This document shows positions 2-19,802 of a stretch of DNA of 24,956 nucleotides, in pieces. The notes beneath the pieces are model-generated. The model was not told the DNA's origin. It searched no databases and saw only the letters and a program-made list of their open reading frames with translations. The position numbers and the translations under genes were made by a program. The stretch spans positions 1-24,956 of the forward strand of contig LRSL01000014.1 in NCBI GenBank assembly GCA_001563335.1. Reading direction: 5' to 3'. Every line of letters starts with the position of its first letter. The stretch's first letter is position 1. The DNA comes from Candidatus Thorarchaeota archaeon SMTZ1-45. GTDB lineage: Archaea > Asgardarchaeota > Thorarchaeia > Thorarchaeales > Thorarchaeaceae.

Positions 2-3000
2 ACCAAATCTGGTTCATATCTGAATGTAGCTCAAGTCGATGTCACATTCACATTGAGAGCTCACAAGACTGCAGTGACTGTGACTGGAGATATGACCACA
101 CCCTATGGCCAAGATACACAAGTCAATATTGTCTTGTTTGATCTGGACACAGGTTCTGCAGTTGATATTTCTGATGTCAATACAATAACCTTCAGCTATA
201 CAGGGGGATATACCTCCGATAACTTTGGTTCATACTCTGCCACCTTGACTACCGCTGATTGGAATGTAGGATCAGTTACAGCCACTTTGACTATCACAAT
301 GTCGAATATTAAGATTCAAGCACCTACACTATATGCATTCAACATCCAAATTTTGGCTCACAGGACTTCGTTGTCAGTAACGGGTGTCACTACCAACCCT
401 TACGGTAATCAGACTGCCCTTACAATAATCCTGACAGACTTGGAAAATGGTAGTTATGTCCCAATTGGTTCCGTTTCCAACATTCGACTTCAGCATCCAT
501 ATGGTTTTGATGACTTCAGTAGCTATGCCCTTACTCTGGACACTAGTTCTTGGTCTGTTGGAGCACATACTGTCACTGTAAATATCACAATTAGTGGAAC
601 AATCTATAGTGCTCCATCTAACTATCAATTTACGATTACGATTCGAAGCATGACTTCTGTAATGTATCATGATCCGTCTCCTTTGAACTTCCCATTAGGT
701 GCAGACTTTGAGGTATATCTCCGACTAAACACTAGTGAAGCAGGTCCACACTATGGTGATCCCATTTCTGGAAGAATTGCTGGGGAGTTCTCTGTACCGG
801 GATATTCCATCTCGATTGACACAACTGAGCAAGCAATTGGTCGATATAAACTCACAATTAGTGAATCCTATTTCGTAGGTACAACCTATGAGATTACAGT
901 TTATTTCACGTCCACAGACAATAGATATGCCAATACATTTGTAGTGATTCGCTTCTTATATCGTTCAATTGATAGTACACTAACCTCTCCTAATTATCCG
1001 CAGGTTACAACGCCTTATCAACTGAATGTGGCGATTCTTCTAAACTATACAGACATTGATTTTGGTTCTGGTATCGAAGGTGCAACAATATCCTCACCAG
1101 ATCATTCATCCTGGATAGCAAGCTGGACCGATTTGAGTGGCGGTCTATATAATGTTACAATTGATGTATCAACACTAAGCCAGGGCATCTATTACCTTAA
1201 CCTTACAGCCACCAAATCAGGTGTCGCACAAAGAACTCTAGAGTTCAGAATAGTAATTCGTGAAGCATATACCTCTGCAATCCCATCAGTGAGTTCGCTG
1301 GTAATTCCAATCGGCAACTCACCATTCTTCTATGTTGAATACTCTGATGTTGATAGACTCATACCTATTGATAATAGCTCATCTCCGTATACTCAGGTTA
1401 TATCAACATGGCATAACTTCTCAGTTGAATATATGCCTGGACTTCAGAAATACAAGATAACATTCCACACATCTGATTCGGATTCAATTATTTCGAATAT
1501 AGCGTACAACTTCGAATTCTCAAAAGGTAGCAACTATCAAATTGTCAGTTTTAACATTATAGTAACTATCCGTACGCACAATACCGAGTTTAGAATCGTT
1601 AGCTCAATTGAGCCAACGAGTACAATCGGAACTTTCAATATTTCTGTATACTATGGAGATCTTGATAGTGCTATAGGCATCAAGTCTGCTTTGGTTATAT
1701 TCTCTGTTTCTAATGTATCTGGACCAGTTAGCTCGAGCTACGATTATGACTTTGATCTTGGCAATGGTTATTACATAATATCTGTGCCAGCTTCTCAATT
1801 TGGTCTAGGTTTCCAGACCTTTACAGTCTATGCAGATTGGACTGGCGCTGTATTAAAGTACCAAGACAAGTCATTCGTTACATCAGCAAATGTAGTGGGT
1901 AGGGATTCAGCTCTAACACTTCTAATTGGTTCTGAGCCAACGCCTTATAATGAGGACATGGGTTACACATTCTTCTATAGCGACATATTCAGTGGTGTGG
2001 GAATTGACAATCTTACTGGAAATGTTTTCATCTATGTAAGTTTCCAAGGTGAAATAGTTAATCCATCTGATATCATTATTACTGACTTTTCTGGAATAGA
2101 TAATGGAACATACGCCATTCAATTTAACACAAGCATCTTCAGTAGAACTGGTTTAATCTATATGAATGTCTTCGTCAACTGGTCTAAAGGTGTTTCACCC
2201 TTCTATTCTAACCGAACTGATGTTGTATCAGTCAGGGTTCTTCCAAGGGATACACTCCTTTCAATCACACCTGCATTATCGACAAGTTATAACGAGAATG
2301 CAACCTTTACGCTAACATATGAGGATGTCACTAGTGGCCTAAACATCATTGATGATCCAAAACTGACAATCTCTATGAATGTTACATTCTCATATGTTGA
2401 GAATGCAGGAATCTTCGAAATAACGATTAACACGAGTCAGTTTGGTAGCTTAGGAATTAAGGCGATTCGAGTTGATGTGACGTGGAGTGGTATTCCATTC
2501 TATGCAAATCGAACTGGTCGAATCACATACATCACTATTGTTACTAGAGTTACCTCTCTTGAATATCTGACACCTCCACCAACGCAGTATGGTGATCAGG
2601 TGGTCTTCAATGTGACTTGGACTGATATAACGGAAGGTGCTTCAATTCCCATTACAGGTGCAACTCTTGTGTTAAAAGAAGGTCTTTCACCAATTGATGT
2701 TAGCGAATATTCCTATGTGGAAATATCACCCGGAGTTTATAGAGTAACTTTGAATACAACATATGCTTTTGCGCCGGGTACAGATACGCTAAGAGTTGAG
2801 ATTTCTTCAATCAACTTCTATTATGCTCTAAAGGCAATCAATCGTCAATTCACAATTCAGGAACGTGCAACTATAGTCGCTGCGAATCCTGTACCTGATG
2901 TTCCATATGGCTCCTCAATTACTGTGATTGTGAGTTACCTAGATTTGTTCACTGGAACACCTATAGCAAATGATTCTGCCAATGGATATCCTGTGACAAT

Positions 3001-6000
3001 AATGATATCAGGTCAGGCATATGCGTCAATCTGGAGAGCTGGATTCCAGAACTATCAATTGAATATCTCATGGAATCCGCTTTGGGATGCAACTTGGACT
3101 CCTGGAACATCACATAGCCTTACAATACAAATGGATTTTGCTTACCAAGCACCATTCTACTTACCAAATCAAGCACTTATCACATTCGATATAAGAATCA
3201 GAGACTCTTCACTTGCACTTGATATTGAGCCAGAAACCACTCCATATCTTGATAATGTGAACTTCACTGTTTTCTATAGTGATACTGATGCAGGAGGAAC
3301 AGGTATTGCAGGTGCTGATATCTCCATAGTTGGTTTTACAGAAATTACAGACTATCTCATTTCAGAAGGTAGTCCTGGATACTACACAATAACTGTATTC
3401 ACTACATCGTTGGGAAGCCTTGGCATACATGTTCTTGACATTCAAGCAGACTGGACAGGTGCACCTTATCATGCTGATGCCGCAAGAAGTGTCAGTGTGC
3501 TTGTTCGAACAAGAGCCACAAACCTAGAAGTCACTGTGCCACCAGCCCAGACACTATATTTGGACAATCTAACCTTTGAGTTTGAATTCAATGATCTCGA
3601 TGCTGGTACATCTATTTCACTAGCTGACCTAACTATCATTCATCTCTACTGGCCTAATATGACTGAAATCAGTCAACTTGAATACACTATTATTGAAAAT
3701 AGTGGCACATATGAGCTTAATATCTCCTCAACTACACTTTCTACCTCGCCAGTGACTGGTCTATCGATTAGAGTGGTTGTGGATTGGCCTGCTGTGCAAG
3801 CACCATTCTATGCTGATGATTTCACTATTGTCAAAATTACAATTACAGGACGCTCCATTCTTGTTGAAACAGAGCAGATTCAGCGTACGCCTAAGGGCGA
3901 CATTCTAAATATCACAATCAATCTTTCAGATCTTGACAATGGAAATCCTGTTGAGGGAGCAATAATCCAATTCAGCTGTCAGGGTCATTTCCTACAGGAA
4001 GGTATTGATTACACTAGAAGCGAAGCACTGGGAACCTATGTATTCAACGTTGATACACTTTCTTTGACTGGTACAGGCACGTTTCTCTTTGATATAAGAG
4101 TCCAATGGAATCCCAATTTCTCACCGTTCTATTCTAACCGTTCCTTGGTAACTTTGACTGGTCTAGTTGATTTGGTGAGAACTTCACTTCAGGTCAATGC
4201 ACTGGTACCATCATCGGTTCAATACACAGACTCTGTTTCACTTAATGTGACTTGGAGAGATTTAGACCATGGACTTCCTGTTACTGGATATGCTGCAATA
4301 ATAGATTCCAATGTGAAATACCTTGTCAGTGGAGCAAGACCTGCAGACTTGGTTGTCTATGAGTATGGCTCATCAGGTATCTATAATATTACTTTCAGTA
4401 CTTCTGATTTGCCAACACTAGGACCCTACACACTTAGAATTGTAGCAGCTGTTTCAGTATATGCATCTGTAACTGTGACCCCACAATTTAACGTTATAGC
4501 TATCAACACAGCCCTCACTCCTGTTGAAACATCTGTTTCTGCATATTGGAAGAGTAGCATAGAAATCAGAGTAGATTATGAAGACCTACTAAACGGAATC
4601 CCAATCTCTGACGCATTGAGTGTATTTTGGTCCTATGGGGCATTTATTGGACCACTGGACGAAATAGGATCAACTGGCCGATATCACGCAACAATAGATA
4701 CTGACAGTTTTGAAGCTGGGACATTTGTATTGACTATTGAAGCTAGTAAGGATAAGTACACGACTTCAATAACAACAATAACATTAGTTGTATTGACGAT
4801 TCCAAGTGAAATAGTAATCCTAGAACCGGTTGAAATAGTAAAAGAAGTGAATAGAGGTAGTTCTGTAATCATTGAGGTCCGGCTTCTTGACACCAATTAC
4901 AGTCTTACAATCGATGACACCCAAGTTCGGAATGAATCCGGATACCTCCAAGTCTATGCATCTCTAAATAGCATAAAATATTACATGACATATAATTCCT
5001 TTACAGGTCTATGGAATGTAATAATACCTGGGAATGCGACCATTCTGGCAGCACTGTTATCTTATGATATTCAGATATTTGCCTTCTTTAATAATTACGA
5101 CCCAGCTGTTGATCAGTTCAAGATATATATCACGCAAACTTCAACGAAGCTTAGTGTGGTTGGTCTTCCTGATCCACCCAAACTTGAGGTGTATTACCTT
5201 CAGAATGTCACTTTGCAACTTAATTTCACGACAGCAAAAGACGTTGCTTTCTTTATGGAAATCAATGATGGAATGGTGAATTGGACTGATGCGATTCGAA
5301 ATATTAGTCTCAGCTTTACATCAATAGGTAATGGTATTTGGACTCTGACATTCAATACGTCAATTCTAGGATTTGGTACTATTGGAGTTTCATTCTATGG
5401 ATATCCAGAAAATACAACTCTTGCTCAAACAATAACGAGCATGACATTGACGGTCAAAAATGTTCCAACTGATGTTGATGGTCCTACTGCAACTATAGAC
5501 TTGTATTGGGGCTGGGCTGGGAACATCTCCATTGACTATATTGATACATACAATTCGAGGTATATACCTGGAGCATTTGTTACCTATAGCTATGGTAACC
5601 TCGATTTCAATGCTACAGACCTCGGAAATGGAACATATACTCTCTTTATTGATACAACATTATTGGAATCTAATGTTAGGGAAAGAATATCCACTTTATT
5701 CTTCCTTGAAAACTATGAAACCCAATCTCGTAGCTTCTTTATTCGAGTACTTGAGAGACCCACAGAGCTAATCATTGATTATCCTGACCAGAACTTTGTA
5801 ACAATTGATCAAGGAATACATTACTTGGAGTTAACGATGGGCGACTCCATTGATATCTCACTATTCTATAATGATATCCTTGCTATTGGAGGATTAAATG
5901 GTGGAATTACTTCTGCAACTTTCTCAGAGTTCACAGACATGAGAGCTCCTGCCTATTTCGGTTCTGGTGTGTCTATGCCAATAGTCTTTCGAGAAGGATT

Positions 6001-7297
6001 CGGATTCTATAATTTCACATTCGACACAAATAACCTGGTGCTTTATGCACTCCACTCAGGTCCTATCATTATCGAGGGCGAGTACTTCAGATTTTCCATA
6101 GAAGTTTTTGATGCGAATAGAGAACTTCAAGCAATAGAAATCCGTATCAGAATCAGAACAACACCGACAGAAATTCTCCATGATGGCGAAGTTGTTACCA
6201 CCGACCAAGCGTTCACCATAATTAATGGAGAAACTATTACATATGATTTCTATCTCAACGATACATGGCATGGTTGGGGTGTTGATGGTGCTACATTTTC
6301 TATAGAACCCGGTGTAACAGCAATCATCAGTAGCAATTCTTCAATAGGAAATGGTTACTATAGAATAGTTATCCAAGCTATTGGGTATGGCGGGTTAGAA
6401 GATATCACAATAACAATGAAACGAGAATTTCATGATGATGTTGATATCGTTTTTTCAATACGCACACTAGCCAATGACTTCGATGTCCTATTTCAAAACA
6501 TTACTATTTATGGTCTGCCAATTAGTATATTTATTATAGCGCTACTTGGCGCTTATGTGAAAGTTTGGAGTGTTCCAAAGAGAATTCGCCAGATAAATGG
6601 TCAGCTCAAGAGCCTTCGTAAGGGTAAGGTGCCAAAACCAATCTCTGATGTAAAAAGCAGACAACAGCTTGCTGCTGAGCTTTTCAATGATACTTTTGAA
6701 AAATTGAAACTAACACGAACTGCAGCACAGATGCCTGAGGATCCTATTCCTATCGAGGTTCCAGAAATGGGCGAGCTTCTCATTCAACTTGCGATTCTCA
6801 CAAATCTAAGCCCTGAGGAGCTTGATGAGTTCCAAGCTGATATCAATAAGATGAAAATGAGTGAGCAAGCCGCCTTCGTACGAGAAGTCATTATGCAGGA
6901 AGCAATCCGAGCTGCTCGTCGAGAGGGCCGAACAGTTGAAGAAACACTTGCCAGAATAGAACAGGAAGCTCAACGACGTCTCGGTGCGGAGGAAGATGTA
7001 GAGCCTATTGATGTGCTAGAACCTGTTTCTGAAGAGATGGTCTTTCTTGAAGACGAAGAGCCAAAAGAAATCCCACGAAAGGAAACGGTACCGCCCGAAG
7101 ATGAAGTCACCTATGAGGAGCCTCCTGACACAATTTCCGAGAAGATGAGTCTCTATGAGATAGAAGAGCTTCGGAAAGACCTCGAACGAAGAGGTGTACC
7201 TCCTCACGAGATTGAAACCATAATTGAACAAGCAAAGGAATTACCTCGTGAACTTGTCGAAGAGCTTGTCAAGAGTCTAGAAGGGAAGAAAGACTAG
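2..7297 (+). CDS. Giant type-I membrane/surface protein A (5'-truncated): >=20 tandem Ig-like beta-sandwich repeats, single TM helix, conserved ~245 aa cytoplasmic tail
   Basis: The frame is open from base 2 (TKSGSYLNVAQVDVTFTLRAH...), so TTG at 53 is not the real start. This stretch aligns with internal residues NATKPGSLYEMASVNITFILRPH of the downstream paralog. Repeats of ~100-120 aa follow the pattern T-x-L...PY...Y-x-D-x-D-x-G...G-x-Y-x-I-x-x-N/D-T, with many N-x-S/T sequons. TM ITIYGLPISIFIIALLGAYV at ~6500-6560 is followed by basic residues (positive-inside rule). Confidence 0.93.
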   Translation, partial: TKSGSYLNVAQVDVTFTLRAHKTAVTVTGDMTTPYGQDTQVNIVLFDLDTGSAVDISDVNTITFSYTGGYTSDNFGSYSATLTTADWNVGSVTATLTITMSNIKIQAPTLYAFNIQILAHRTSLSVTGVTTNPYGNQTALTIILTDLENGSYVPIGSVSNIRLQHPYGFDDFSSYALTLDTSSWSVGAHTVTVNITISGTIYSAPSNYQFTITIRSMTSVMYHDPSPLNFPLGADFEVYLRLNTSEAGPHYGDPISGRIAGEFSVPGYSISIDTTEQAIGRYKLTISESYFVGTTYEITVYFTSTDNRYANTFVVIRFLYRSIDSTLTSPNYPQVTTPYQLNVAILLNYTDIDFGSGIEGATISSPDHSSWIASWTDLSGGLYNVTIDVSTLSQGIYYLNLTATKSGVAQRTLEFRIVIREAYTSAIPSVSSLVIPIGNSPFFYVEYSDVDRLIPIDNSSSPYTQVISTWHNFSVEYMPGLQKYKITFHTSDSDSIISNIAYNFEFSKGSNYQIVSFNIIVTIRTHNTEFRIVSSIEPTSTIGTFNISVYYGDLDSAIGIKSALVIFSVSNVSGPVSSSYDYDFDLGNGYYIISVPASQFGLGFQTFTVYADWTGAVLKYQDKSFVTSANVVGRDSALTLLIGSEPTPYNEDMGYTFFYSDIFSGVGIDNLTGNVFIYVSFQGEIVNPSDIIITDFSGIDNGTYAIQFNTSIFSRTGLIYMNVFVNWSKGVSPFYSNRTDVVSVRVLPRDTLLSITPALSTSYNENATFTLTYEDVTSGLNIIDDPKLTISMNVTFSYVENAGIFEITINTSQFGSLGIKAIRVDVTWSGIPFYANRTGRITYITIVTRVTSLEYLTPPPTQYGDQVVFNVTWTDITEGASIPITGATLVLKEGLSPIDVSEYSYVEISPGVYRVTLNTTYAFAPGTDTLRVEISSINFYYALKAINRQFTIQERATIVAANPVPDVPYGSSITVIVSYLDLFTGTPIANDSANGYPVTIMISGQAYASIWRAGFQNYQLNISWNPLWDATWTPGTSHSLTIQMDFAYQAPFYLPNQALITFDIRIRDSSLALDIEPETTPYLDNVNFTVFYSDTDAGGTGIAGADISIVGFTEITDYLISEGSPGYYTITVFTTSLGSLGIHVLDIQADWTGAPYHADAARSVSVLVRTRATNLEVTVPPAQTLYLDNLTFEFEFNDLDAGTSISLADLTIIHLYWPNMTEISQLEYTIIENSGTYELNISSTTLSTSPVTGLSIRVVVDWPAVQAPFYADDFTIVKITITGRSILVETEQIQRTPKGDILNITINLSDLDNGNPVEGAIIQFSCQGHFLQEGIDYTRSEALGTYVFNVDTLSLTGTGTFLFDIRVQWNPNFSPFYSNRSLVTLTGLVDLVRTSLQVNALVPSSVQYTDSVSLNVTWRDLDHGLPVTGYAAIIDSNVKYLVSGARPADLVVYEYGSSGIYNITFSTSDLPTLGPYTLRIVAAVSVYASVTVTPQFNVIAINTALTPVETSVSAYWKSSIEIRVDYEDLLNGIPISDALSVFWSYGAFIGPLDEIGSTGRYHATIDTDSFEAGTFVLTIEASKDKYTTSITTITLVVLTIPSEIVILEPVEIVKEVNRGSSVIIEVRLLDTNYSLTIDDTQVRNESGYLQVYASLNSIKYYMTYNSFTGLWNVIIPGNATILAALLSYDIQIFAFFNNYDPAVDQFKIYITQTSTKLSVVGLPDPPKLEVYYLQNVTLQLNFTTAKDVAFFMEINDGMVNWTDAIRNISLSFTSIGNGIWTLTFNTSILGFGTIGVSFYGYPENTTLAQTITSMTLTVKNVPTDVDGPTATIDLYWGWAGNISIDYIDTYNSRYIPGAFVTYSYGNLDFNATDLGNGTYTLFIDTTLLESNVRERISTLFFLENYETQSRSFFIRVLERPTELIIDYPDQNFVTIDQGIHYLELTMGDSIDISLFYNDILAIGGLNGGITSATFSEFTDMRAPAYFGSGVSMPIVFREGFGFYNFTFDTNNLVLYALHSGPIIIEGEYFRFSIEVFDANRELQAIEIRIRIRTTPTEILHDGEVVTTDQAFTIINGETITYDFYLNDTWHGWGVDGATFSIEPGVTAIISSNSSIGNGYYRIVIQAIGYGGLEDITITMKREFHDDVDIVFSIRTLANDFDVLFQNITIYGLPISIFIIALLGAYVKVWSVPKRIRQINGQLKSLRKGKVPKPISDVKSRQQLAAELFNDTFEKLKLTRTAAQMPEDPIPIEVPEMGELLIQLAILTNLSPEELDEFQADINKMKMSEQAAFVREVIMQEAIRAARREGRTVEETLARIEQEAQRRLGAEEDVEPIDVLEPVSEEMVFLEDEEPKEIPRKETVPPEDEVTYEEPPDTISEKMSLYEIEELRKDLERRGVPPHEIETIIEQAKELPRELVEELVKSLEGKKD

Positions 7298-7307
7298 GAA
7301 ATTTCCT

Positions 7308-7325
7308 ACTTTCTTTCATTCTTTT
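7308..7325 (+). terminator. Pyrimidine/T-rich archaeal-type terminator after gene A
   Basis: The tract actttctttcattctttt lies just downstream of the TAG at 7297. Confidence 0.4.
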
Positions 7326-7355
7326 AATCAATTTCGAAAAAAAAGACAGACTTGA

Positions 7356-7421
7356 CATTTGAGAATAATAATCCAAACGACATGTATTGATATAGGCAAC
7401 GAATAATTTGGTTCTCAAATG
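7356..7421. repeat. Perfect 10-bp inverted repeat, extendable into a long imperfect hairpin
   Basis: catttgagaa (7356-7365) pairs with ttctcaaatg (7412-7421). Inside, ccaaa (7373-7377) pairs with tttgg (7407-7411). Confidence 0.7.
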
Positions 7422-7470
7422 ATAGACCTGCCCCTGAGGAGAAGGTAGGTAACAAAGAATTCGAAAACAA

Positions 7471-10400
7471 ATGGTGCCAATGATGCGGAAAAGTTGTCTT
7501 TTCTCCCTAATTTTTGTTGCGTTGTTTGTGTTTAGTCTTGCAGACCTCTCTGGGAGTGGTGTTCCTACAGTGGATCGAGGTCTGTTAGTGAATAGCCAAT
7601 ATCAGGTTTCGGAGGCAGGTGGTGCATATGTTGGAACAGGGTCTCCTCTCACAGTCTCATTCTCTGGCACCTTCACAAATAGCTCCAGTTGGAGTCAAAC
7701 GACCACAACTCTCTCCTCTAGCTTCACCTCTGGCACATCGTTTGTTGTTACCAACTCAAGTACTGTAGCATGGACTGCGTATATTCTTGTTTCTCCACCA
7801 GCAGAGGTAGAGAGTCTAAGTTTCAATGTAGATTATCAAGAAACTGAGTGGCGTCCAATTTCATTGACAAATCCAATTGGAGTAGTGATGAGCTATCCTA
7901 CAGAGTGGTGGTATGAAACTGGACTTGTATTTGTAAGTCAATCCGCTGTAACAACTCATGGTCTCTGGAAGCTCGAATTTGTAGCGATGAACCATCTATT
8001 CAATCTTGAATTAGGACCAAGTAGTGGACCATTGGGTTCAACTTCGACATTCGGTCTAAGTGATGAGATGTTGTTTCGGAGTACAAGTAGTTGGATTACT
8101 GGTGCATCCACCAAATTTGTACTGACAGATCCAACTGGTTCTGAATGGTACTTTGCTACTAACACCACATCGGGTTCTCCAACTCACATTTTGCAATCAT
8201 TCCGATACAAGAAAGACATCACCATAGACCGAACTCGGCATCTTGCTACAAGTGTGAACAACTTCCCTGTCTTGATCGACATCACAGATTCTGATCTTCA
8301 AACAGATGTCCAAAATGATGGAGACGATATTCTATTTGTATCTGGGGGCCATATCCTCTCACACCAGATTGAACTATTTGAGAAAGCAACAGGTCATCTT
8401 GTTGCATGGGTGAAGACAAATCTTACAGGCTCTGTTAACACTGTAGTCAGCATGTACTATGGAAATCCCCTTCTTGGTAATATGGAGAATCCTGCGGATG
8501 TGTGGACTGAGAGTTTCGCAGCTGTTTGGCATCTTGATGAAGATGCTACTGCTGGACAAACGACAGCAACTCATTATGATTCAACATCTGAAGGATATGA
8601 TGGCACTCAAAATGGAAACTTCGATGATTCTGGCAGAGTTGGCTTAGGACAACACTTTGATGGCTCAAATGATCAGATTGTTATCCTAGCATCAGAAGTA
8701 CTCGAGCCTGCTGGGGATGTTGAGATATCTGGTTGGTTTAAACTAGATGTAGCTCACACATCTACTTCAACAACAACAAAACTACTCTTCACTAAAATGC
8801 TTGATGGCGACAATGATATGCACATTGCACTTGTTGGAACTGACTATACAACAGCAGCCGCTACTGATGGAAGTCTGGTCTTCAAGACTGAGAATGGTGG
8901 TAATGGTCAGATGTACAAATGGACCAGTCAAACAAGCTGGCAAGCTGGCGTATGGTATTATTTCTCTTGTTTCATGGATGCTAGTACTCCTTCAAATAAT
9001 AGAATCCAAGTTAATGGTGTAGTAGATGTTGCTGGTTCGAGTGGAGGCATAACCTATGCTGACCTCTCTTTCACCGCAGATTGGGGAATTGGGGGTGGAC
9101 TAATCGATCAGATTTCTGGAAACCTTGCATGGTTTGACGGTGTTATGGATGAAGTCCGGGTGTCTGCCACAACTACCGCAAACGGTAGGTCTACTGCATG
9201 GCGTGCAGCTGAGTATCAGAATCTAAACAGCCCCTCAACATTCTACTCAATAGGACCGGAGCAGGAAAGAACCTCTCCTGATTCTCAAATCAAGAAGACT
9301 GTTGACGTGACAGCTTTGGCTGGTTCTTGGGTTGTTTCTGGTTACTACAACGACTCCGGTAGCTCGGTCAACTATCGTGTGGGCATGTATGAACGAACCT
9401 TTGTCATAAAGCATGCTTCCTCATTGAGTCTCACAGCTCCAACTGATGCAGTAGCTGACAGTATAACTGTAGCCACAATTGGTGATTCGGTTTATGTCCA
9501 AGTGGAACTAACTGATGGTATCACAGCATCTGGTGTGGCTGGTTCTATTATGACAACAAATTGGACCATTTATGGCTCTGGAACAAACCTCCAATTCCAT
9601 GATGAGGGAGGAGGTTTGTATGGCCTTGTGCTTAATACATCGCACCTTGAGAACAACATTAGATGGAGGCTCAATATCTTATCAAGTCATCCCTACTACA
9701 CTGATGCTTCAACCACTCTATATATTGATCTTAACCACGACACCTCTCTTGATTATACGAATATAACCTCTACACCCACAGGGTTTGATTTCACAGCAAC
9801 TCTGTTTTTCACTGACACATTCAATAATGGTAGAATCTCAGGAGCGACTATCACATTAGCAAATGGAACTGTAATCTCTCCTGATGCGGAAGGGAATGGT
9901 CAATACAATATCTCTATCCCAACTTCAAGTCTTACTCCCGGAATCTACTGGTATATTATCAATGCGACTAAACCTGGCTCATTATATGAAATGGCAAGTG
10001 TGAATATCACTTTCATTCTTCGACCACACTATACAGCAGCTTCGGTGTCAGGTGATCTTCTGACTCCTTGGGGTTTTGATACTCCATTGACAGTAGTTCT
10101 AATCGACCTTGATACTGGTGGTTTTGTTGACATTAGTAATGTGGATTCTATTACCTTGACTCCATCAGGCTATGGGCCACAAGTTTTTGGAACATATAGC
10201 TTAACTCTTGATACTGATTTATGGACTGTCGGAGTTGCAGATGTCACACTAACTATCAGCATGTCTAGTTCTAATTATTATGAACCAGATGCATATGTCT
10301 TCCAAATAACAATTAGAAAACATTACACATCTGCAACAGTTGTTGGAAATCTTGTTACTCCCTATGGAAACAATACTCCACTAACTGTAATGATAACAGA

Positions 10401-13400
10401 CCTAGATACTGGAGCGGCGGTATCTGCCTCGTCAGTAGATTACCTTGAGTTTGATTCTAGCTATCCTCTCTTCTTCCTGAACTCTCCCTTTACAACACTC
10501 GCAGTTACTTTACCAACGGGTGATGATTCATGGGCTGTTGGAGTGGAATCTGTAACTCTAAGCATCAATATGATAGGGTCCTCTGTCTATCAAGACCCCT
10601 CAGATTATTTATTCCAGCTCACAATACGAAGCATGACTACCTATCTCTATAATGAACCAAGTGACCTCATCTTTCCGAATGGAGATGATTTCACAATTGT
10701 ACTCTATCTAAATGTCAGTGAGATTGGACCCAATTATGGTAATCCGATAAATGGGCTTGCAGCAGACTTCACTGTTAAGAATTCAACATACACCTATCCT
10801 GCTGTCGTGATTGGTCTAGGAAATGGACGATATAATTTAACTATTGCAGCTTCGTTCTTCCCGGAGGGGACTTATACAATTACTGTAACTGTGAATCCAT
10901 CTGATTCTCGTTACGCAAAAACTCAGTTAGTCATTACCTTTGACTATAGACCAGCTCGCAGTGATCTTACTGCAAACTTGTACACTGTGTCTACCCCATA
11001 TGACCATGACATCACAATAGTATTGTTCTATGAGGACTTAGATCGTGGCGTTGGTATAACAACAGGTGACATAACCTCCCTAGATGCTACAATCTTTGAC
11101 ACGCACACTGGAGGAGGGTATTATGATGTCCTCATTGATGTCAGTGGTCTAGCAGTTGGTACTCATGTTGTCAATCTTGAGGCTAATGCAGCTGGCTATG
11201 ATGCTAGAAGTGTAACAATTACTATCATCATTACAAAGATACACACGGATGCTGAACCTTCCCTGGTTTCGCTAGACATGCCTGTCGGCAGTACAAAGAT
11301 CTTCTACATTGATTTCAATGATCTTGATAACGGTGTCCCAATTAACGTCGCAACCCCAACGAATAATTGGAGTACACCAGCTAATGTCGTTGTTACCTGG
11401 ACTGGGATAACTTGGGAGGTGTCTTTTACAACAACTGGTTCCGATGCCCTCGGTACATACATTGTATGGTTCAACTTCGATGAGGGAAGCGGAAACTACT
11501 ATGATGGTTTCTGCGAGATTGAAGTAGTAGTACGTAGTCACGTGACAATTTTCAATCTTGTGAGCGCGATAGAGCCAACCCCCTACAATGGTATTGTCAA
11601 CATCTCTCTGCGATACTATGATTGGGATGGCAAAGTAGGCATTACTGATGATAGCAACATTCTTTCTCGTGTCTGGAATCAAACCAACTGGATAACTCAC
11701 ACCTTAGTCAATGATGGAAGTGGTTACTATACAATTCAGATTAATGCCACCCTATTTGGTCAAGGTGTTCAGAATTTCATCATTTACTTCGATTGGATCG
11801 GACCTGTTCAACAATTTGAAAATAAGTCTACCAATGCATCTGGAAATATCATAGGGATTGACTCTCGACTCACTCTACTTCAATCCTCGGAACCAACGCC
11901 ATATCTTGGGTCAATGCTCTATATCTTCAACTATGCTGAAACCGGTGGCGCTGGCATCACAAATACAAGTTATGGAGGAGGAAATGTCCATATCTATGTC
12001 AACTTCCAGGGACAAATAGTAGATTTAGGTCAAATCACTATAACAGAAATCGATCCTGTGTTGCAGCCTGGAAACTATTCCATTTCATTCAGTACTACAA
12101 TATTTGGTAGAACTGGTCTAATCTACATGAACGTTTACATCAATTGGACCGCAGGCGTAGCTCCATTCTATACAAATCGATTCGATGTCATCTCAGTTAG
12201 GATTCTACCACGTGATACAGTTTTATCTGTCGTACCTCCGACGCCTCAGGCTTATGGCGAGAATGCTACATTCTCATTCACATTTGAAGATGTGACTGGC
12301 GGCGCAAGTGTACCAATCGATGATGATCCTGCATTAGATGTCAGCTTAAGCCTTTCTGATTACACACTCACCTGGAATGGTGGGACACATGAATTTACAA
12401 TTTCCTTCAATACAAGTCAATTTGGAGCACCATTAGGTCAAAAGTCATTCACACTCAGTGTTACATGGGCTGGTGCACCTTACTACAATAACCGAACTGG
12501 TCGAACAGTCTTCGTCATGGTGACTACTAGACAGACAGTCTTTGATTATCAATCACCTGCACCTACAGCATATCTGAATAATGTCACCATCAACCTTGAA
12601 TGGACTGATGTTTCAGGAGCTGCAACAAGAGGAATCGAAGGAGCTATGGTCACTCTATTTAATGCCATATTTCCAATTCCCAGTGTTTACTACACTGTAC
12701 GAGATTTAGGTAATGGTATGTATGAAGTTGAACTTAACACAACCGCATACTCCAACCCCGCAGATTATGAATTAACAATTGAAATGTCGACAAGTTATTT
12801 CTATCTCAATAATGTAAGTTCTATGCGTATTCTGAAAGTCCTCTATAGGTCCTCACTTCTATCTGCTGAACCAATTGGACCAGCACCCTACAATTCCTCT
12901 CTTGTATATATACTAGACTTCCAAGATCGTTTAACTTTAGATACGATTGGCAATGATACATTAAAAGTCACCCTCACAATTCTGAATGGAAGTAGTTGGT
13001 ACTTCAACATTGAATGGAAACCAGCATTTCAATACTATGAGTTGACGATTGAAACTTACAACCATCCTGAGCTTGTCATTGGACTTGAGTATACATTGAG
13101 GATTCAAGCTTCATATGCGAATCAAGCTCCCTTCTATGGTTCTGATGATACATACGTATTCTTTGAACTTAGAACCCGTTCCTCAATTGTGACTCTGGTT
13201 GAATCTCCAGACCCAACACCATATCTCGAGGACGCACAATTCAGAGTTAGGTATGTCGATTCTGATAGCGGAAAAGGAATATTAGCGTCCAGCATATCGC
13301 TGTACAAGAGTGGAATTCCATTAACCGAAGGAGTTCACTATGTTCTTACAAACCAAGGAAATGGCTACTATCTATTCACATTGGAAACGACTGCATTGGA

Positions 13401-16400
13401 TGGTCTAGCTTATACCACTGTCCAAGTGCGTGCAATCTGGAGTGGCGGAGCTCCATATCATGATAATGCTAATCTAAATGTCGATGTATACGTGACCAGA
13501 CGAGAGGCTAATGTTGAAATCATAACACCGCCCACTCAAGCTAGATATCTAGACAATGTTACATTCCAATTCGTATACAGGGATCTTGGTAGCGGGGTAG
13601 TGATTACTACTATTACTTCATCAGAAATTGAGGTCTGGGCTGCAGGTATTTTGTTAGCATTAGGTCAATACATGATAACTGGAATTGCCGGTACATTCAC
13701 AGTAGAGGTCAATTCAACTGTACTTAGTCCTGGGTTGGTAACCAGCTATAACATAACAATTCGAGTTGATTGGGATGACGGAAGTGCTCCCTATTACTTT
13801 GATGATTCAACAATTGTTAGAGTTTCAACTAGATCAAGATTGATGTCATATACAGTGTTATCTGCTGAAGAAACAGCATTTGGGGAACTACTCAATTTGT
13901 CCTTTACATTGTTGGATGCAGACTCAAGCAACCCGGTGATTGATGCTCTGATATCTTTCGATCTTAAAACGGGTGGTCTAGTAGAAGGTGTCGATTTCAT
14001 TGTAATTAAAGGAATAGGAATCTATACGATCCAGATTGATACAACTGCCTTAGGTGTTCCCGGAACGTATCTGTTTGATCTTGATGTTGGATGGAATGGG
14101 TCCTCCCCATATTATCTTGGATTACCAACGATTACTATGACTGGAATTGTTTCCAAGATTGATACGCTCTTTGTCCCATTGGCTGATCTTGTTACAGGAC
14201 AGTGGCAGAGTTCGGCTTCTATCACTCTAAATTACACCAGCCTTCTTGATGGTAGCCCCGTATTAGGAGCAGAAATGAAATGGATATGGAATGAAGCATT
14301 CATCTATGCTGGACCTGCAGGGGAGATTGGAAGTGGACTATATCAAGCTGATATCGATACATCACTTGCTGACGCTGGTACATATGTGATAACTTTCATT
14401 ATAGAAAATCTGACCGCTTATAAAGAAGCAGTCGCGTACGTGACACTCGTCATTACAAACCTTGATAGTCAATTGACTCTGATAGACCCAGCCCTACCAG
14501 TAATTAGCGTTAATCGAGGTGCGGCCCTAATAATAACTGTCTACTTTATTGACGGGACCAGTAATCCAATCTCTCATTCAATTGATACTCAGGTCGTGGC
14601 AACTATTGAAGGTGTGTCCTTCCCATTAACATACAATGGTACTCCTGGGTACTATACAGTTACACTTCCCGAGAACGATGAAACTGCGACAAAAAGAGCT
14701 CCTCGAACGCCCTATAATGTAATCATTTCTGCAACAACAAAGAATTATGATCCCGCATTATCCTCGGTTACCTTCTATGTACTTCAGTCAGCAACCGAGA
14801 TTCAATTAGGACTCAATATGGCAGAAGAAATGACATTTGTGTACTCTGAAATGGGTTTACTTACAGTAAATGTAGTCATAGATGCAGGTGATATACCATT
14901 CTGGAATGGTACAGTACAGTGGTCGATACAAGATTTAGGGTTGATTGATAACTTTACCATCGACTATGGGAATGGTACGTTTAGTACCTACTTGGATACT
15001 ACAACAATTGGCTATGGGATTGTACCCATTATGCTAAGATTCATTCCTTGGAACAATATGTCTCTCTATGCAACATCATTAAAATTAATCACCGTGGCAA
15101 TAACTCGTATACAAACTTCTGTAACTCCCCCCTCTGGCCGCGAATTTTATTGGGGTTGGAGTGGTTATCTTGAGTTTATATACTGGTCAGAATCATTTGG
15201 AACAGGAATCCCTGATGCAGATGTAACTCTGACACTACCTGGATTAGAATCATCAGTAGCAATTGATCTTAACAATGGAACTTATCTTGTCTTTCTAAAT
15301 ACAACATTGCTCAGAGGAAGTTCAAGCTACTTACCACTAACAGTGAGTTTCACAAAAGCCAATCATCTTGAAGCAAATGCGATTATCCAGATTCGAATCT
15401 TAGAAGTTCCCACAGAGATTTCGGTTGAATCCGTCGAATATACCCCCTCTTATGCTGGTACCTTAGAGGATTTGATCAATCTTCAGATACCTATTGGAGA
15501 TTCGATGGCAATTGATTTCTGGTACAATGATACGGATAACTCTGAGGGCTTTGTTGGCGGATTGTTTGGGGCAACTTCCACACCAAATAGCTATCTTCGA
15601 GGTCCAACTATAGATGGGTATCTCAATGTGACAGTTATTACTCTTGGAGGTGGACTCTATAGAGTTGTCTTTGATACGATGGACGCTATCATTGCAGCTC
15701 AGGCAAGTTCAGAAGAGTATCGACTCTATATCGAGATGACGCTGAGTAATCGTTCCACAACAGACATTCTGTTTAAAATTGGGGTCATCAATATACCTGC
15801 TGAACTAATCATTATAGGAACACCTCCCACAATAATTACTAATGGTGAAATTATCACTTTGGAACTCTTCTATCATGATATTTGGCACAACCTTGGTATT
15901 TCTAGCGCTACTTCTACTGCTAATGTTAGTGCTGGTTCACCATTCTCCGCCCAGATTGAAGCGGGCTCAGCAGCTGGACAGTATTTCTTGAGCTTAAACA
16001 CTCGTGGACTTATGCTGAGTCCGGGATCTGGAACTGTTACAATCAATCTAAATGCTGAGTCATATTCTCTTGGTTCCGCATTACTTTTTATTGAAGTCCT
16101 TCAAAACAACGTAGATGTTTTGGTCACTAATGGAATCACATTTGGTCTTCCAATCGTGCTAATTATTGCAATCTTAGGATTTGCTTACATGAGAGTTTGG
16201 AGTGTGCCAAAACAGCTCAGAATGATCAACAATCAGATTAAAATCATCAAGAAAGGCAAAATACCCAAACCTGTGAAAGAAGTACGTAGTCGTCAAAAAA
16301 TCATTGCAGATCTATATACTGACACATACGAAAAGTTGGGAATGACTCGCCCTGTCGATGCTTTTCCTGAGGAGTCCATTCCTGTAGAAGTGCCAGAGCT

Positions 16401-16959
16401 TGGCGGGCTTTTAATTCAACTTTCAATCCTTACCAACCTCAATCAACAAGAACTCGATGATTTCAAGGCTGATATTGCCAAGATGAAGATGAGTGAGCAG
16501 GCTGCATTTGTTAAGGAAGTCATTATGCAGGAAGCTATTCGCGCAGCGAGGCGAGAAGGAATAACTGTTGAAGAAACCATTGAGCGAATACAGAAAGAAG
16601 CTTCTCAGAGGCTCGCTGGTGAGGAAGGTAGAAGAACTCCTGAAGATACCCTAGATGAAGAACCTGAAGAGCTTGAAGAAGAACCAGTGTTCCTTGCACC
16701 TCGAAAGAAAGAACCAGATGTTGAACTGGATGTAGAACCAGATGAGCCAGATGTACCAACTGAGGATTTCAGCTTTTCAAGTGACCAAATGAGTCCATTC
16801 GAAATAGAAGAGCTTCGAAAAGAGTTGCTTGAGAAAGGTGTGCCTTTGGCTGAGATTGACATCATCATCAAACAGGCTGGTGAGCTACCAAGAGAACTCA
16901 TTGAAGAGCTCGTTAGAAGTTTGGATGTTGAGAAGTCCAGGAAAGGCAAGAAAATCTAG
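7471..16959 (+). CDS. Giant type-I membrane/surface protein B: signal peptide, DUF2341 + LamG/concanavalin-A-like head, ~21 Ig-like repeats, TM helix, conserved cytoplasmic tail
   Basis: Signal peptide MRKSCLFSLIFVALFVFSLA (start could be ATG 7471, 7480 or 7483). DUF2341-like YKKDITID..NNFPVLI..GDDILF..AWVK..SMYYGN at ~8206-8470. LamG-like VWHLDE..FDGSNDQI..ISGWFK..WYY..FDGVMDEVRVS at ~8500-9255. TM GITFGLPIVLIIAILGFAYM at ~16130-16190. Collinear paralog of gene A. Confidence 0.95.
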   Translation: MVPMMRKSCLFSLIFVALFVFSLADLSGSGVPTVDRGLLVNSQYQVSEAGGAYVGTGSPLTVSFSGTFTNSSSWSQTTTTLSSSFTSGTSFVVTNSSTVAWTAYILVSPPAEVESLSFNVDYQETEWRPISLTNPIGVVMSYPTEWWYETGLVFVSQSAVTTHGLWKLEFVAMNHLFNLELGPSSGPLGSTSTFGLSDEMLFRSTSSWITGASTKFVLTDPTGSEWYFATNTTSGSPTHILQSFRYKKDITIDRTRHLATSVNNFPVLIDITDSDLQTDVQNDGDDILFVSGGHILSHQIELFEKATGHLVAWVKTNLTGSVNTVVSMYYGNPLLGNMENPADVWTESFAAVWHLDEDATAGQTTATHYDSTSEGYDGTQNGNFDDSGRVGLGQHFDGSNDQIVILASEVLEPAGDVEISGWFKLDVAHTSTSTTTKLLFTKMLDGDNDMHIALVGTDYTTAAATDGSLVFKTENGGNGQMYKWTSQTSWQAGVWYYFSCFMDASTPSNNRIQVNGVVDVAGSSGGITYADLSFTADWGIGGGLIDQISGNLAWFDGVMDEVRVSATTTANGRSTAWRAAEYQNLNSPSTFYSIGPEQERTSPDSQIKKTVDVTALAGSWVVSGYYNDSGSSVNYRVGMYERTFVIKHASSLSLTAPTDAVADSITVATIGDSVYVQVELTDGITASGVAGSIMTTNWTIYGSGTNLQFHDEGGGLYGLVLNTSHLENNIRWRLNILSSHPYYTDASTTLYIDLNHDTSLDYTNITSTPTGFDFTATLFFTDTFNNGRISGATITLANGTVISPDAEGNGQYNISIPTSSLTPGIYWYIINATKPGSLYEMASVNITFILRPHYTAASVSGDLLTPWGFDTPLTVVLIDLDTGGFVDISNVDSITLTPSGYGPQVFGTYSLTLDTDLWTVGVADVTLTISMSSSNYYEPDAYVFQITIRKHYTSATVVGNLVTPYGNNTPLTVMITDLDTGAAVSASSVDYLEFDSSYPLFFLNSPFTTLAVTLPTGDDSWAVGVESVTLSINMIGSSVYQDPSDYLFQLTIRSMTTYLYNEPSDLIFPNGDDFTIVLYLNVSEIGPNYGNPINGLAADFTVKNSTYTYPAVVIGLGNGRYNLTIAASFFPEGTYTITVTVNPSDSRYAKTQLVITFDYRPARSDLTANLYTVSTPYDHDITIVLFYEDLDRGVGITTGDITSLDATIFDTHTGGGYYDVLIDVSGLAVGTHVVNLEANAAGYDARSVTITIIITKIHTDAEPSLVSLDMPVGSTKIFYIDFNDLDNGVPINVATPTNNWSTPANVVVTWTGITWEVSFTTTGSDALGTYIVWFNFDEGSGNYYDGFCEIEVVVRSHVTIFNLVSAIEPTPYNGIVNISLRYYDWDGKVGITDDSNILSRVWNQTNWITHTLVNDGSGYYTIQINATLFGQGVQNFIIYFDWIGPVQQFENKSTNASGNIIGIDSRLTLLQSSEPTPYLGSMLYIFNYAETGGAGITNTSYGGGNVHIYVNFQGQIVDLGQITITEIDPVLQPGNYSISFSTTIFGRTGLIYMNVYINWTAGVAPFYTNRFDVISVRILPRDTVLSVVPPTPQAYGENATFSFTFEDVTGGASVPIDDDPALDVSLSLSDYTLTWNGGTHEFTISFNTSQFGAPLGQKSFTLSVTWAGAPYYNNRTGRTVFVMVTTRQTVFDYQSPAPTAYLNNVTINLEWTDVSGAATRGIEGAMVTLFNAIFPIPSVYYTVRDLGNGMYEVELNTTAYSNPADYELTIEMSTSYFYLNNVSSMRILKVLYRSSLLSAEPIGPAPYNSSLVYILDFQDRLTLDTIGNDTLKVTLTILNGSSWYFNIEWKPAFQYYELTIETYNHPELVIGLEYTLRIQASYANQAPFYGSDDTYVFFELRTRSSIVTLVESPDPTPYLEDAQFRVRYVDSDSGKGILASSISLYKSGIPLTEGVHYVLTNQGNGYYLFTLETTALDGLAYTTVQVRAIWSGGAPYHDNANLNVDVYVTRREANVEIITPPTQARYLDNVTFQFVYRDLGSGVVITTITSSEIEVWAAGILLALGQYMITGIAGTFTVEVNSTVLSPGLVTSYNITIRVDWDDGSAPYYFDDSTIVRVSTRSRLMSYTVLSAEETAFGELLNLSFTLLDADSSNPVIDALISFDLKTGGLVEGVDFIVIKGIGIYTIQIDTTALGVPGTYLFDLDVGWNGSSPYYLGLPTITMTGIVSKIDTLFVPLADLVTGQWQSSASITLNYTSLLDGSPVLGAEMKWIWNEAFIYAGPAGEIGSGLYQADIDTSLADAGTYVITFIIENLTAYKEAVAYVTLVITNLDSQLTLIDPALPVISVNRGAALIITVYFIDGTSNPISHSIDTQVVATIEGVSFPLTYNGTPGYYTVTLPENDETATKRAPRTPYNVIISATTKNYDPALSSVTFYVLQSATEIQLGLNMAEEMTFVYSEMGLLTVNVVIDAGDIPFWNGTVQWSIQDLGLIDNFTIDYGNGTFSTYLDTTTIGYGIVPIMLRFIPWNNMSLYATSLKLITVAITRIQTSVTPPSGREFYWGWSGYLEFIYWSESFGTGIPDADVTLTLPGLESSVAIDLNNGTYLVFLNTTLLRGSSSYLPLTVSFTKANHLEANAIIQIRILEVPTEISVESVEYTPSYAGTLEDLINLQIPIGDSMAIDFWYNDTDNSEGFVGGLFGATSTPNSYLRGPTIDGYLNVTVITLGGGLYRVVFDTMDAIIAAQASSEEYRLYIEMTLSNRSTTDILFKIGVINIPAELIIIGTPPTIITNGEIITLELFYHDIWHNLGISSATSTANVSAGSPFSAQIEAGSAAGQYFLSLNTRGLMLSPGSGTVTINLNAESYSLGSALLFIEVLQNNVDVLVTNGITFGLPIVLIIAILGFAYMRVWSVPKQLRMINNQIKIIKKGKIPKPVKEVRSRQKIIADLYTDTYEKLGMTRPVDAFPEESIPVEVPELGGLLIQLSILTNLNQQELDDFKADIAKMKMSEQAAFVKEVIMQEAIRAARREGITVEETIERIQKEASQRLAGEEGRRTPEDTLDEEPEELEEEPVFLAPRKKEPDVELDVEPDEPDVPTEDFSFSSDQMSPFEIEELRKELLEKGVPLAEIDIIIKQAGELPRELIEELVRSLDVEKSRKGKKI

Positions 16960-17732
16960 TCATCCAATGTTTCCTCTTTGCTCGCAAGGAAATATGAGAG
17001 CGGCAGAGTGGTCCCAGACGAGATAATCTTTATTCTGTTAGTCCTTCTAACAGGATATTGAGGATGTTTGGCCAGAGTGTAGACTCGTCTTGACTTTGAC
17101 TCTGAAACATGAACATGTACTTGGGCTGCACCTGTAAGTGTTCTTCCGCCCTGTGGAAAATTTGGTTTTCTTATCGAAACTGGCGCAGACACAAGAGAGA
17201 ATATTCCTCTGCGAAGTGTAAGAGTTGATATTTTCGATGCCATGTGGGAAATCTCTTGCATTCCCTCTCCCTTTAGTCCTTCTTCCAGATATAACTGAGG
17301 AAGTCCTGTCACCATTAGGACTCTTGCAGGGACTGTGTTAAGAAATCCCTCAAGTTGATTCATCACAAGGTCATACGTCTGAGGTGAGTTGAACGCTCGA
17401 GAGATGTAGATTCGTTCCAAAGCTGTTTCTGGTTCTATATCATACTCATACGCAAGCTGCGTGAACTTCTCCAGTTTGATAATGTTTGCACTGTCGATGA
17501 TTATCGTAGGTGTTTCCAATCCTCCCTTATCAAGTGAGGTCTGCACTTTCACTGCAATACGTTGAAAGTCATCATGTAGTGACCTATCACCATAGAAGAG
17601 ATGAACTAATCCAGACTCAAGTCCACCCCCGAGGAGGCTGTCAAGTGCTACTATTCCCGTTTCAACTTTTACACTCATGAACTCGTCTGCAGTATGAAAA
17701 CCTGGTCGCAGTGGAGTTTCAGGCAATCTCAT
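16956..17732 (-). CDS. Inactivated RadA/Rad51-family paralog (RecA fold, no N-terminal HhH domain, degenerate Walker A/B)
   Basis: RadA hallmarks: ETGIVALDSLLGGGLESG, IAVKVQ..KGGL, IIIDS, ALERIYISRAFNS.Q, GGRTL, LAKHP. The Walker A position reads YGDRSLHDD (no GKT) and Walker B reads VLMVTG (no D). Confidence 0.88.
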   Translation of the reverse strand: MRLPETPLRPGFHTADEFMSVKVETGIVALDSLLGGGLESGLVHLFYGDRSLHDDFQRIAVKVQTSLDKGGLETPTIIIDSANIIKLEKFTQLAYEYDIEPETALERIYISRAFNSPQTYDLVMNQLEGFLNTVPARVLMVTGLPQLYLEEGLKGEGMQEISHMASKISTLTLRRGIFSLVSAPVSIRKPNFPQGGRTLTGAAQVHVHVSESKSRRVYTLAKHPQYPVRRTNRIKIISSGTTLPLSYFLASKEETLDD

Positions 17733-18591: not shown

Positions 18592-18630
18592 ATGAAGGGC
18601 CGGGTTTCCGGCCATCATCCTTTCTTCTTT
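18592..18630 (+). terminator. GC-rich hairpin plus pyrimidine tract between convergent gcvH and cdc6-like genes
   Basis: ggccgg-gttt-ccggcc (18598-18613), extended by atga/tcat, then cctttcttcttt. Confidence 0.65.
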
Positions 18631-19772: not shown

Positions 19773-19794
19773 CAGAACTTCGTCTATTAGAGAG

Positions 19795-19802
19795 TATATA
19801 AA
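19795..19802 (-). promoter_or_regulatory. TATA box of the cdc6-like gene
   Basis: TTTATATA on the minus strand ending 23 nt upstream of ATG 19772; matches the archaeal TTTAWATA consensus. Confidence 0.7.

Follow-up and report, generated by a model that had tools for sequence, protein, structure and literature searches.

Giant immunoglobulin-repeat membrane proteins of Thorarchaeia with a conserved folded tail and a probable cytoplasmic docking role

Why would a giant archaeal surface protein carry a conserved folded domain on what appears to be the inner side of its membrane? The question was raised by two long co-oriented open reading frames (ORFs), genes A and B, which filled the first ~17 kb of the window (the whole stretch analysed here, bases 1-24,956 of contig C14 of Candidatus Thorarchaeota archaeon SMTZ1-45). 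Each encoded a long stalk of immunoglobulin (Ig)-like repeats, a single transmembrane (TM) helix and a tail of 245 amino acids (aa) in A or 255 aa in B. A conserved folded cytoplasmic tail is unusual among archaeal surface proteins. According to one study (PMC9834061), a cultured Lokiarchaeon has no S-layer and a single membrane bearing unidentified “complex surface proteins” seen by electron cryotomography (cryo-ET), and protruding surface proteins of Asgard archaea are thought to mediate cell-cell contacts in models of the origin of eukaryotes. The family to which A and B belong provides concrete candidates for such Asgard surface proteins, in the form of giant Ig-repeat fibres with a lectin-like head and a conserved folded tail. 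The reading that we favour, as a fairly probable one, is that A and B are giant, probably N-glycosylated type-I membrane proteins of the Thorarchaeia surface whose tail serves for docking in the cytoplasm.

Architecture and membrane topology of the two proteins

Gene A (2..7297, + strand) was a partial coding sequence of 2431 aa with its 5' end open at the contig start. Because its full-length ortholog in the related genome G001 was 4105 aa long, ~1670 N-terminal residues of A should lie outside the window, and the missing portion, judged from that ortholog, includes a head of ~1500 aa. Gene B (7471..16959, + strand) was a complete coding sequence of 3162 aa. It began with a signal peptide-like segment (7471..7551, + strand) that had a basic n-region and a hydrophobic core at residues 8-27, followed by a head in which a DUF2341 domain (PF10102) was found at 8317..8508 (+ strand; 25.2 bits against a cut-off of 23.4, with the head scanned alone) and then by a LamG-like region that was recognised in orthologs. 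The G001 ortholog of A likewise had a signal peptide and a Laminin_G_3 domain (PF13385, E 5.5e-9, 36.8 bits, cut-off 27.6), with PF10102 slightly below its cut-off at 22.3 bits. Precomputed matches to both families were present on public homologs, with PF13385 on several proteins of the length of B.

Six tail-bearing giant genes were found in this genome, in three tandem pairs: A and B on C14, a pair of 3667 and 3975 aa on C81, and a pair of 2589 and 2567 aa on C58. A hidden Markov model (HMM) of the stalk repeat, iterated on these six paralogs, identified 20 contiguous repeats of ~100 aa in A (98..6472, + strand; domain E 4e-8 to 4e-22) and 21 in B (9472..16104, + strand), and both arrays ran unbroken up to the TM helix. 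The C81 proteins had 23 repeats each, the C58 proteins 17 each, and the G001 ortholog of A had 22. One repeat was modelled with AlphaFold2 (AF2) on an alignment of the 41 repeats of the window. The model was a seven-strand β-sandwich with a predicted local distance difference test score (pLDDT) of 95.9 and a predicted template modelling score (pTM) of 0.85, and Foldseek placed it with the Ig domains of titin, myotilin, NCAM and Rib and with a domain of the S-layer protein SbsC (probability 1.00, best E 7.6e-4, TM-score ~0.55-0.6). The repeat profile also matched bacterial Ig-like adhesins weakly (4e9l, FdeC-like, E 6.9e-5; invasin 5n40, E 1.2e-3). No Pfam repeat family matched the stalk repeats of A or B, and Por_Secre_tail matches in the stalk were rejected (14-20 bits against a cut-off of 27). 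Cadherin, I-set, fn3 and integrin families of Pfam were absent from the whole proteins at E<=0.1 and from the head and stalk pieces scanned at E<=1. One Ig domain is ~4 nm long, so a stalk of ~21-22 domains would have a predicted length of ~80-90 nm.

The single TM helix was located at 6506..6559 (+ strand) in A, as a Kyte-Doolittle peak preceded by 15 residues of net charge -1 and followed by 15 of net charge +4, and at 16135..16191 (+ strand) in B, by hydrophobicity and flanking charge. Beyond the signal segment of B, each protein had one strong hydrophobic segment, ~245-255 aa before the C-terminus. Among the six paralogs, the 15 residues after the helix carried a charge of +3 to +5 and the 15 residues before it -1 to -5. 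Their ectodomains contained 49-72 N-x-S/T sequons each against 24-35 expected from composition, and the six tails contained 0-2. The composition of A and B changed at the membrane as well: lysine made up 1.4% of the Ser/Thr-rich ectodomains vs 7.5-9.2% of the tails, which were 16-19% glutamate. The signal peptide, the sequon excess confined to the ectodomain and the positive-inside charge pattern argue strongly for an N-out, C-in topology with a cytoplasmic tail, and the sequons suggest that the ectodomain is probably N-glycosylated. No PGF-CTERM or archaeosortase anchor of NCBIfam or Pfam matched A or B, and 245-255 aa followed the TM helix instead of a short basic end.

An earlier note on this DNA, made from the letters alone, had proposed much of this layout, and the layout held: the two co-oriented paralogous ORFs, stalks of about 20 Ig-like domains (20 and 21 by the HMM, with the Ig fold supported by AF2 and Foldseek), a type-I arrangement with one TM helix and a tail of ~250 aa, and a lectin-like head, seen as DUF2341 in B and as Laminin_G_3 in the G001 ortholog of A. 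The note had also named the side of the membrane on which the tail lies as a point to check, and the signal peptide, the sequons and the charge pattern all agreed with the inside.

The folded tail and its taxonomic range

Eleven tails, taken from this genome, from G001 and from G025 (a genome of a sister family), were aligned (alignment A1), and the alignment was read alongside an AF2 model of the tail. The tail could be divided into four parts. Next to the membrane lay a basic juxtamembrane motif, then came a four-helix domain, and an acidic disordered linker connected this to a three-helix unit at the C-terminus. The mean pLDDT of the model was 76, with 80-92 in the helical blocks. In gene A, the juxtamembrane motif (KVWSVPKRIRQINGQLKSLRKGKVPKP...R) lay at 6560..6664 (+ strand; alignments A1 and A7). 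Its consensus in A1 was [RK]V[WLF]S[VI]PKxxRxINxxIKxLxKGKxPKP...R, with a helix at tail residues 7-20, a net charge of +5 to +6 and a helical hydrophobic moment of ~1.5. The four-helix middle domain followed at 6743..6988 (+ strand; AF2 helices at tail residues 68-143, block pLDDT 88-92); it was conserved in alignments A1 and A5 around the core VPExxELLxxLxxLTxLxxxELDxFxxDIxKMxxSExxxFVKEVIxQE. The linker (6995..7132, + strand) was acidic, proline-rich, variable and predicted to be disordered (pLDDT <50 for tail residues 146-167 and 172-191). The C-terminal unit of ~48 aa (7145..7288, + strand; AF2 helices at 198-244, pLDDT ~88; alignment A6) had the consensus ExxELRxxLxxxGxxxxEIDxIxEQAxxLPRxLxEELLKSL. 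The tail of gene B (16192..16956, + strand; 255 aa) had the motif at 16192-16296, the middle domain at 16375-16620 and the C-terminal unit at 16789-16932.

The tail matched no known family or solved fold in Pfam, NCBIfam or the PDB; a match to a characterised family, which the earlier note had named as a ground for refutation, was thus not found. Nothing exceeded the thresholds of Pfam and NCBIfam; at E<=10 in Pfam, with UBA, SHOCT and small three-helix modules considered, the C-terminal unit gave only a sub-threshold RecX_HTH1 match (E 0.023), and a match to NCBIfam MHJ_0274 at E 2.9e-4 was rejected as noise, its 20.6 bits falling far below the cut-off of 80. HMM profiles were compared with all PDB sequences, both for the entire tail and separately for its middle domain and its C-terminal unit. 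None gave a credible match; the highest-ranking hits were to de novo TIM-barrel designs, to a phage repressor and, for the C-terminal unit, to 21 residues of polycystin-2 (E 0.0045). Foldseek of the tail model against the PDB returned 0 matches at E<=1e-3. The best hits of a VIA-align scan were designed helical proteins (Z 7.2), which is the noise level for helical models, and residues 66-141 alone were well covered; the C-terminal unit reached Z ~5 with generic three-helix bundles. A search of the ESM Atlas with the tail gave no usable match, and no catenin-, ankyrin- or FERM-binding motif was recognised in the tail. When the middle domain was compared with the C-terminal unit, hhalign gave a probability of 55% over 20 columns, which did not establish the two as related repeats.

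The tails of A and B were 56% identical over 273 columns. When the two proteins were aligned globally, identity was 36% in the ectodomains, rose to 66% in the tail core and 68% in the C-terminal unit, and was only 34% in the linker between these two. Between A and its G001 ortholog, the corresponding values were 51% for the ectodomain, 71% for the tail core, 30% for the linker and 78% for the C-terminal unit, and 11 A orthologs from the same genus were 77-88% identical in the tail core vs 36-71% in the last Ig domain. The contrast between tail and ectodomain was thus strongest between paralogs and weaker between orthologs. The earlier claim that the tails are the best-conserved part stood for the paralogs and for gene A and was marginal for the orthologs of B; the accompanying claim of a folded tail agreed with the helical blocks of the model. 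Tail-core identities within the genome (A-B 66%, A-C81b 56%, C81a-C81b 48%, C58a-C58b 43%) were consistent with duplication within pairs.

The C-terminal unit occurred nine times in the genome, all within the six giants, with one copy in five of them and four tandem copies in the 3975-aa C81 protein. Outside the six giants, neither this unit nor the juxtamembrane motif was found in the genome, apart from one extra match at E 0.02, and two queries detected no soluble tail homolog there. The four units of the C81 protein were spaced by short charged linkers (~63713-64290, - strand; locus L004:946-1644).

The full tail was confined essentially to one Thorarchaeia family. When the tail profile was run against one genome of each prokaryote species, 72 of 120 pattern matches were confirmed as loci, and their titles named Candidatus Thorarchaeota in 50 cases, Hermodarchaeota in 2, Promethearchaeota in 3 and “archaeon” or “uncultured archaeon” in 17; the majority thus bore out the Asgard host on which the earlier note had made its proposal of cytoskeleton or membrane-remodelling machinery as the partner depend. 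Among 1,835,955,588 cluster representatives, 135 matched the tail at E<=1e-3, always at the C-terminus of long proteins, and the 120 homologs listed were named “hypothetical protein”, “DUF2341 domain-containing” or “LamG-like jellyroll fold domain-containing”. At E<=1e-5, the full-tail profile matched 101 of 400 Asgard genomes. Full-length matches were seen only in the family of the window (f1, 82 of 85 genomes, the three without a match being 52-88% complete) and in the sister family (f2, 1 of 1), and so the conservation in other genomes that had been proposed as a check was found. Weak matches occurred elsewhere (f12, 10/19; f3, 4/4; f9, 1/135; f15, 1/4; f31, 1/3), and in five re-examined genomes from outside Thorarchaeia these lay chiefly over the juxtamembrane part and never reached past profile position 137. 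All finds of the middle domain and of the C-terminal unit came from a single family-level group of Thorarchaeia.

Several further sequences resembled parts of the tail. In f12, loci L021 (G035:C24:89000-97000) and L109 and L114 (both in G141) encoded tandem large Ig-repeat proteins with the motif RVFSIPWLVRKMR...GKTP, and their tails contained two or three units of the form LxxLxxLsxxEKxxLFxxMKxIPxxDRxxFhxxL, reminiscent of the middle domain of Thorarchaeia. Three short proteins without a TM helix, P0101 (341 aa), P0122 (185 aa) and P0129 (191 aa), carried the middle domain, to which P0101 added some of the juxtamembrane stretch; provided that they are real, these proteins are relatives of the tail in soluble form. 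Four others (P0111, P0121, P0128 and P0130), in which the C-terminal unit followed unrelated N-termini, were set aside as probable chimeric contigs or calls. By eye, the N-terminal parts of this set resembled a polytopic membrane protein, a prenyl-transferase, a helix-turn-helix (HTH) protein and MoaB/MogA, and P0121, the only one of the four that was looked up, was a singleton on a 1.1-kb contig.

The juxtamembrane motif in Asgard archaea and the role of the tail

The segment next to the membrane had a much wider range than the rest of the tail. In an alignment of the TM and juxtamembrane segments of 13 proteins from several Asgard families (A7), the residues P, R, G, P and R were invariant. 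We define this module as TM + YPKxxRK...KGK, that is, a TM helix followed by P-[KWS]-x-x-R ... G-[KRN]-x-P ... R, located C-terminally in large Ig-repeat proteins, and both proteins of the window fitted it, including the five invariant residues. A profile of the module matched 266 of 400 Asgard genomes at E<=1e-6, among them 81/85 in f1, 123/135 in f9, 18/19 in f12, 11/14 in f26, 4/4 in f3 and 3/3 in each of f13, f22 and f31. Since it gave no match in f5 (0/31), f18 (0/22), f14 (0/12) or f20 (0/12), it was not a generic TM profile. A word-seeded motif search of 5.8 billion proteins, limited to lengths of 127-2000 aa and to 8000 candidates, gave 48 matches; the 17 with an organism name were all labelled as Asgard (Thor 9, Odin 2, Promethearchaeota 3, Sif 1, Hod 1, Hermod 1). 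The carriers outside Thorarchaeia were ORFs of 385-2687 aa that ended in a TM helix and ...YQKYFKYPKIIRK...KGK...R[DE]L, and the stretch before the helix, where read, resembled the Ig-like repeats of A and B. Beyond the motif they had a short tail or a lineage-specific helical tail. In Loki-like genomes, proteins of 545-1900 aa carried the module, and the tail after the motif could be as short as ~60-80 aa. At locus L131 (G160:C5:1332345-1335539), in another Asgard family, the motif was followed by at least five helical repeats of ~70 aa (MINKIAADLIAQV...KLSSGEM...), which looks like an independent expansion of the cytoplasmic side.

In the mechanism that we favour, a Sec-type signal peptide would export the chain, and the DUF2341/LamG lectin-like head would be borne on a rod of ~21-22 Ig-like domains, so that the ectodomain could act as an adhesive or contact fibre binding glycans or partner cells. 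On the cytoplasmic side, the basic juxtamembrane motif would rest against the inner leaflet and serve as an anchor. The folded modules of the tail would dock, either with each other or with a partner conserved in the cytoplasm, and this docking would anchor, position or report on the fibre. Some binding interaction, with a partner protein, with itself or with the inner leaflet, seems to constrain the tail. Three features suggest recognition and not anchorage alone: two folded modules are conserved in sequence on either side of a freely diverging linker, the terminal unit has been multiplied, and the juxtamembrane residues are invariant. Should the tail bind a partner inside the cell, this would be the first link from surface to cytoplasm described in this group; if it only anchors, it would still be a useful sequence marker for Asgard surface proteomes.

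Several observations weigh against the docking role. Neither the three loci of the genome nor those of G001 and G025 revealed a conserved neighbour or any gene that could be a partner in the cytoplasm or in an operon, and the neighbours were housekeeping genes (RadB-like, GcvH, Orc1/Cdc6-like, GlcD/GlcF-like, malic enzyme). Soluble homologs of the middle domain were known solely as singletons on contigs of 0.9-2.2 kb. Between B and its G001 ortholog, the tail core (63%) was barely more conserved than the ectodomain (57%). The tail model was built on only 11 sequences and had a pTM of 0.36, and the N-out/C-in topology rests on heuristics. The source genome is a metagenome-assembled genome (MAG) with a completeness of 87.7% and a contamination of 5.8%, and the four runs that contained the locus were all DNA and none RNA.

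The lack of a partner gene also fits another view, in which A and B are structural envelope or glycocalyx proteins that replace a missing S-layer and the tail is a sturdy anchor or biogenesis element with no partner and no signalling. The basic in-plane helix, together with a bulky cytoplasmic plug, would stop a ~90-nm stalk from being pulled out of the membrane. Six paralogs per genome and a near-universal presence in the family (82/85) would suit such proteins, as would the charge and hydrophobic moment of the motif and the fact that this motif, and not the rest of the tail, is the most widely conserved part; in Loki-like genomes the tail can end soon after it. This view leaves the sequence-specific conservation of the four-helix domain and the terminal unit (66-78% vs 30-34% in the linker) unexplained, as it does the four-copy terminal unit of one paralog, and the invariance of P/R/G/P/R over distant lineages suggests recognition rather than charge alone. 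We consider the anchor a possible but rather unlikely explanation of the whole tail. The motif itself may be read in a bolder way, as a pan-Asgard docking signal that, with the TM helix, ties Ig-repeat fibres to a cytoplasmic machine such as the Lokiactin cytoskeleton, the endosomal sorting complex (ESCRT) or a small-GTPase adaptor, with tail modules added by each lineage (in Thorarchaeia, the four-helix domain and the multiplied three-helix units). This proposal is speculative and in our judgement unlikely. If it were true, a prokaryotic adhesion-receptor system coupling touch to an internal scaffold would exist in the closest relatives of eukaryotes, and the molecules behind the “complex surface proteins” of cryo-ET would be named.

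Signalling through paired subunits appeared less plausible still. The earlier note had suggested a heterodimer, and A/B and the other two pairs could be obligate integrin-like heterodimeric receptors that signal across the membrane by pairing their TM helices and their tails; the presence of three co-oriented tandem pairs in one genome, the recurrence of pairs in relatives such as G001, G013 and G002 and a 4-nt overlap in the C58 pair, as expected of co-expressed subunits, point in that direction. However, G025 contained only one gene of the A/B type (4431 aa, 33 repeats), together with a pair of the C58 type. The A/B pair is therefore the product of a later tandem duplication, and a design with two subunits was not ancestral. 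The tail cores of A and B resemble each other as closely as expected of recent paralogs, and integrin or cadherin domains were not found. The two genes were separated by 173 nt (7298..7470, + strand), which, read directly, had T-rich runs where gene A has ended and, ahead of the ATG of B, a purine-rich stretch of the GGAG type. These elements suggest separate transcription of A and B, and the spacer may hold a terminator or a promoter. Complex prediction for A vs B (TM helix plus tail core, with ortholog alignments) scored 0.00 in two runs without controls and had no bearing either way. With the tandem arrangement as its sole evidence, the heterodimer was improbable, and the analogy drawn in the earlier note with cadherins or integrins coupled to cytoskeleton or membrane-remodelling machinery was not supported by any partner or conserved neighbouring gene. 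A tail released like that of Notch, by pull on or cleavage of the ectodomain, and acting in the cytoplasm, for example on DNA or transcription, is very improbable. The top Foldseek rows of the tail model were helical domains of sigma factors (E>1, probability <=0.08), and the sub-threshold RecX_HTH1 match of the terminal unit (E 0.023) is a weak hint of the same kind; neither match was significant, no protease gene was found nearby, and the tail is strongly acidic overall. Docking of the fibre through a folded cytoplasmic tail remains the reading that we prefer.

Relation to known fibres and the setting of the locus

The proteins are a real, undescribed variant of the giant archaeal LamG/Ig surface proteins. 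An N-terminal Laminin_G_3 domain is, according to PMC11573180, the commonest architecture of archaeal proteins longer than 5000 aa, and its function is not understood. Like A and B, such huge proteins have a DUF2341 and LamG head followed by long β-rich repeats, and homologs of A and B bear these names; a TM helix with a conserved folded tail is not mentioned in that description (PMC11573180), and the tail lies outside every Pfam model. Full-text searches of the literature turned up no account of the tail or of the motif, although supplementary tables may list the genes.

Bacterial adhesins with Ig-like (Big) domains share with A and B a tandem Ig-like rod and a lectin-like or binding head. 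Intimin, invasin and FdeC are anchored by an N-terminal outer-membrane β-barrel, whereas A and B have a C-terminal single TM helix and a cytoplasmic domain, and the sequence similarity is marginal. Very long fibres with a C-terminal membrane-spanning segment are also known in the staphylococcal proteins Ebh and Embp and in the tetrabrachion stalk of Staphylothermus; their repeats are helical bundles or coiled coil, and they are not known to have a homologous cytoplasmic domain. Metazoan Ig cell adhesion molecules and cadherins resemble A and B in the signal peptide, the string of Ig-like or β-sandwich domains, the one TM helix and a tail better conserved than the ectodomain between paralogs. 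There is no sequence or domain homology, and the analogy is one of design only. The surface of the cultured Lokiarchaeon, a single membrane with protruding proteins according to PMC9834061, resembles that predicted for A and B. The Thorarchaeia proteins exceed the Loki-like carriers of the motif two- to fivefold in length and have the extra tail, and a link to the cryo-ET densities is hypothetical.

The remaining genes of the window encoded a Rad51/RadB-like protein, a glycine-cleavage H protein (GcvH), an Orc1/Cdc6-like AAA protein, an FAD-binding and CCG/Fe-S pair (GlcD/GlcF-like), a malic enzyme and a nitroreductase. The Rad51/RadB-like gene (16956-17732, - strand; Pfam Rad51, E 1.4e-14) was convergent with gene B and had 4 nt in common with its stop region. 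The Orc1/Cdc6-like gene lay at 18630-19805 (- strand). A counterpart of it and the GlcD/GlcF-like pair were also present downstream of gene B in G001; therefore, synteny was kept in part. At the start of the 3975-aa C81 gene (~75364-75640, - strand), the open frame overlapped the end of the preceding giant gene, and the true start is probably a non-ATG codon because a signal-peptide-like stretch lay upstream of the first ATG. The MAG comprised 3.54 Mb in 119 contigs. Four public metagenome runs, each from a different study, contained the stretch. The label was marine sediment for three of them and seawater for one, and one of the four is probably the source. Contigs from the three other runs were at least 99% identical to the locus, with a dozen substitutions and zero indels, and the A-B junction was bridged by a 3.5-kb contig of the probable source run.

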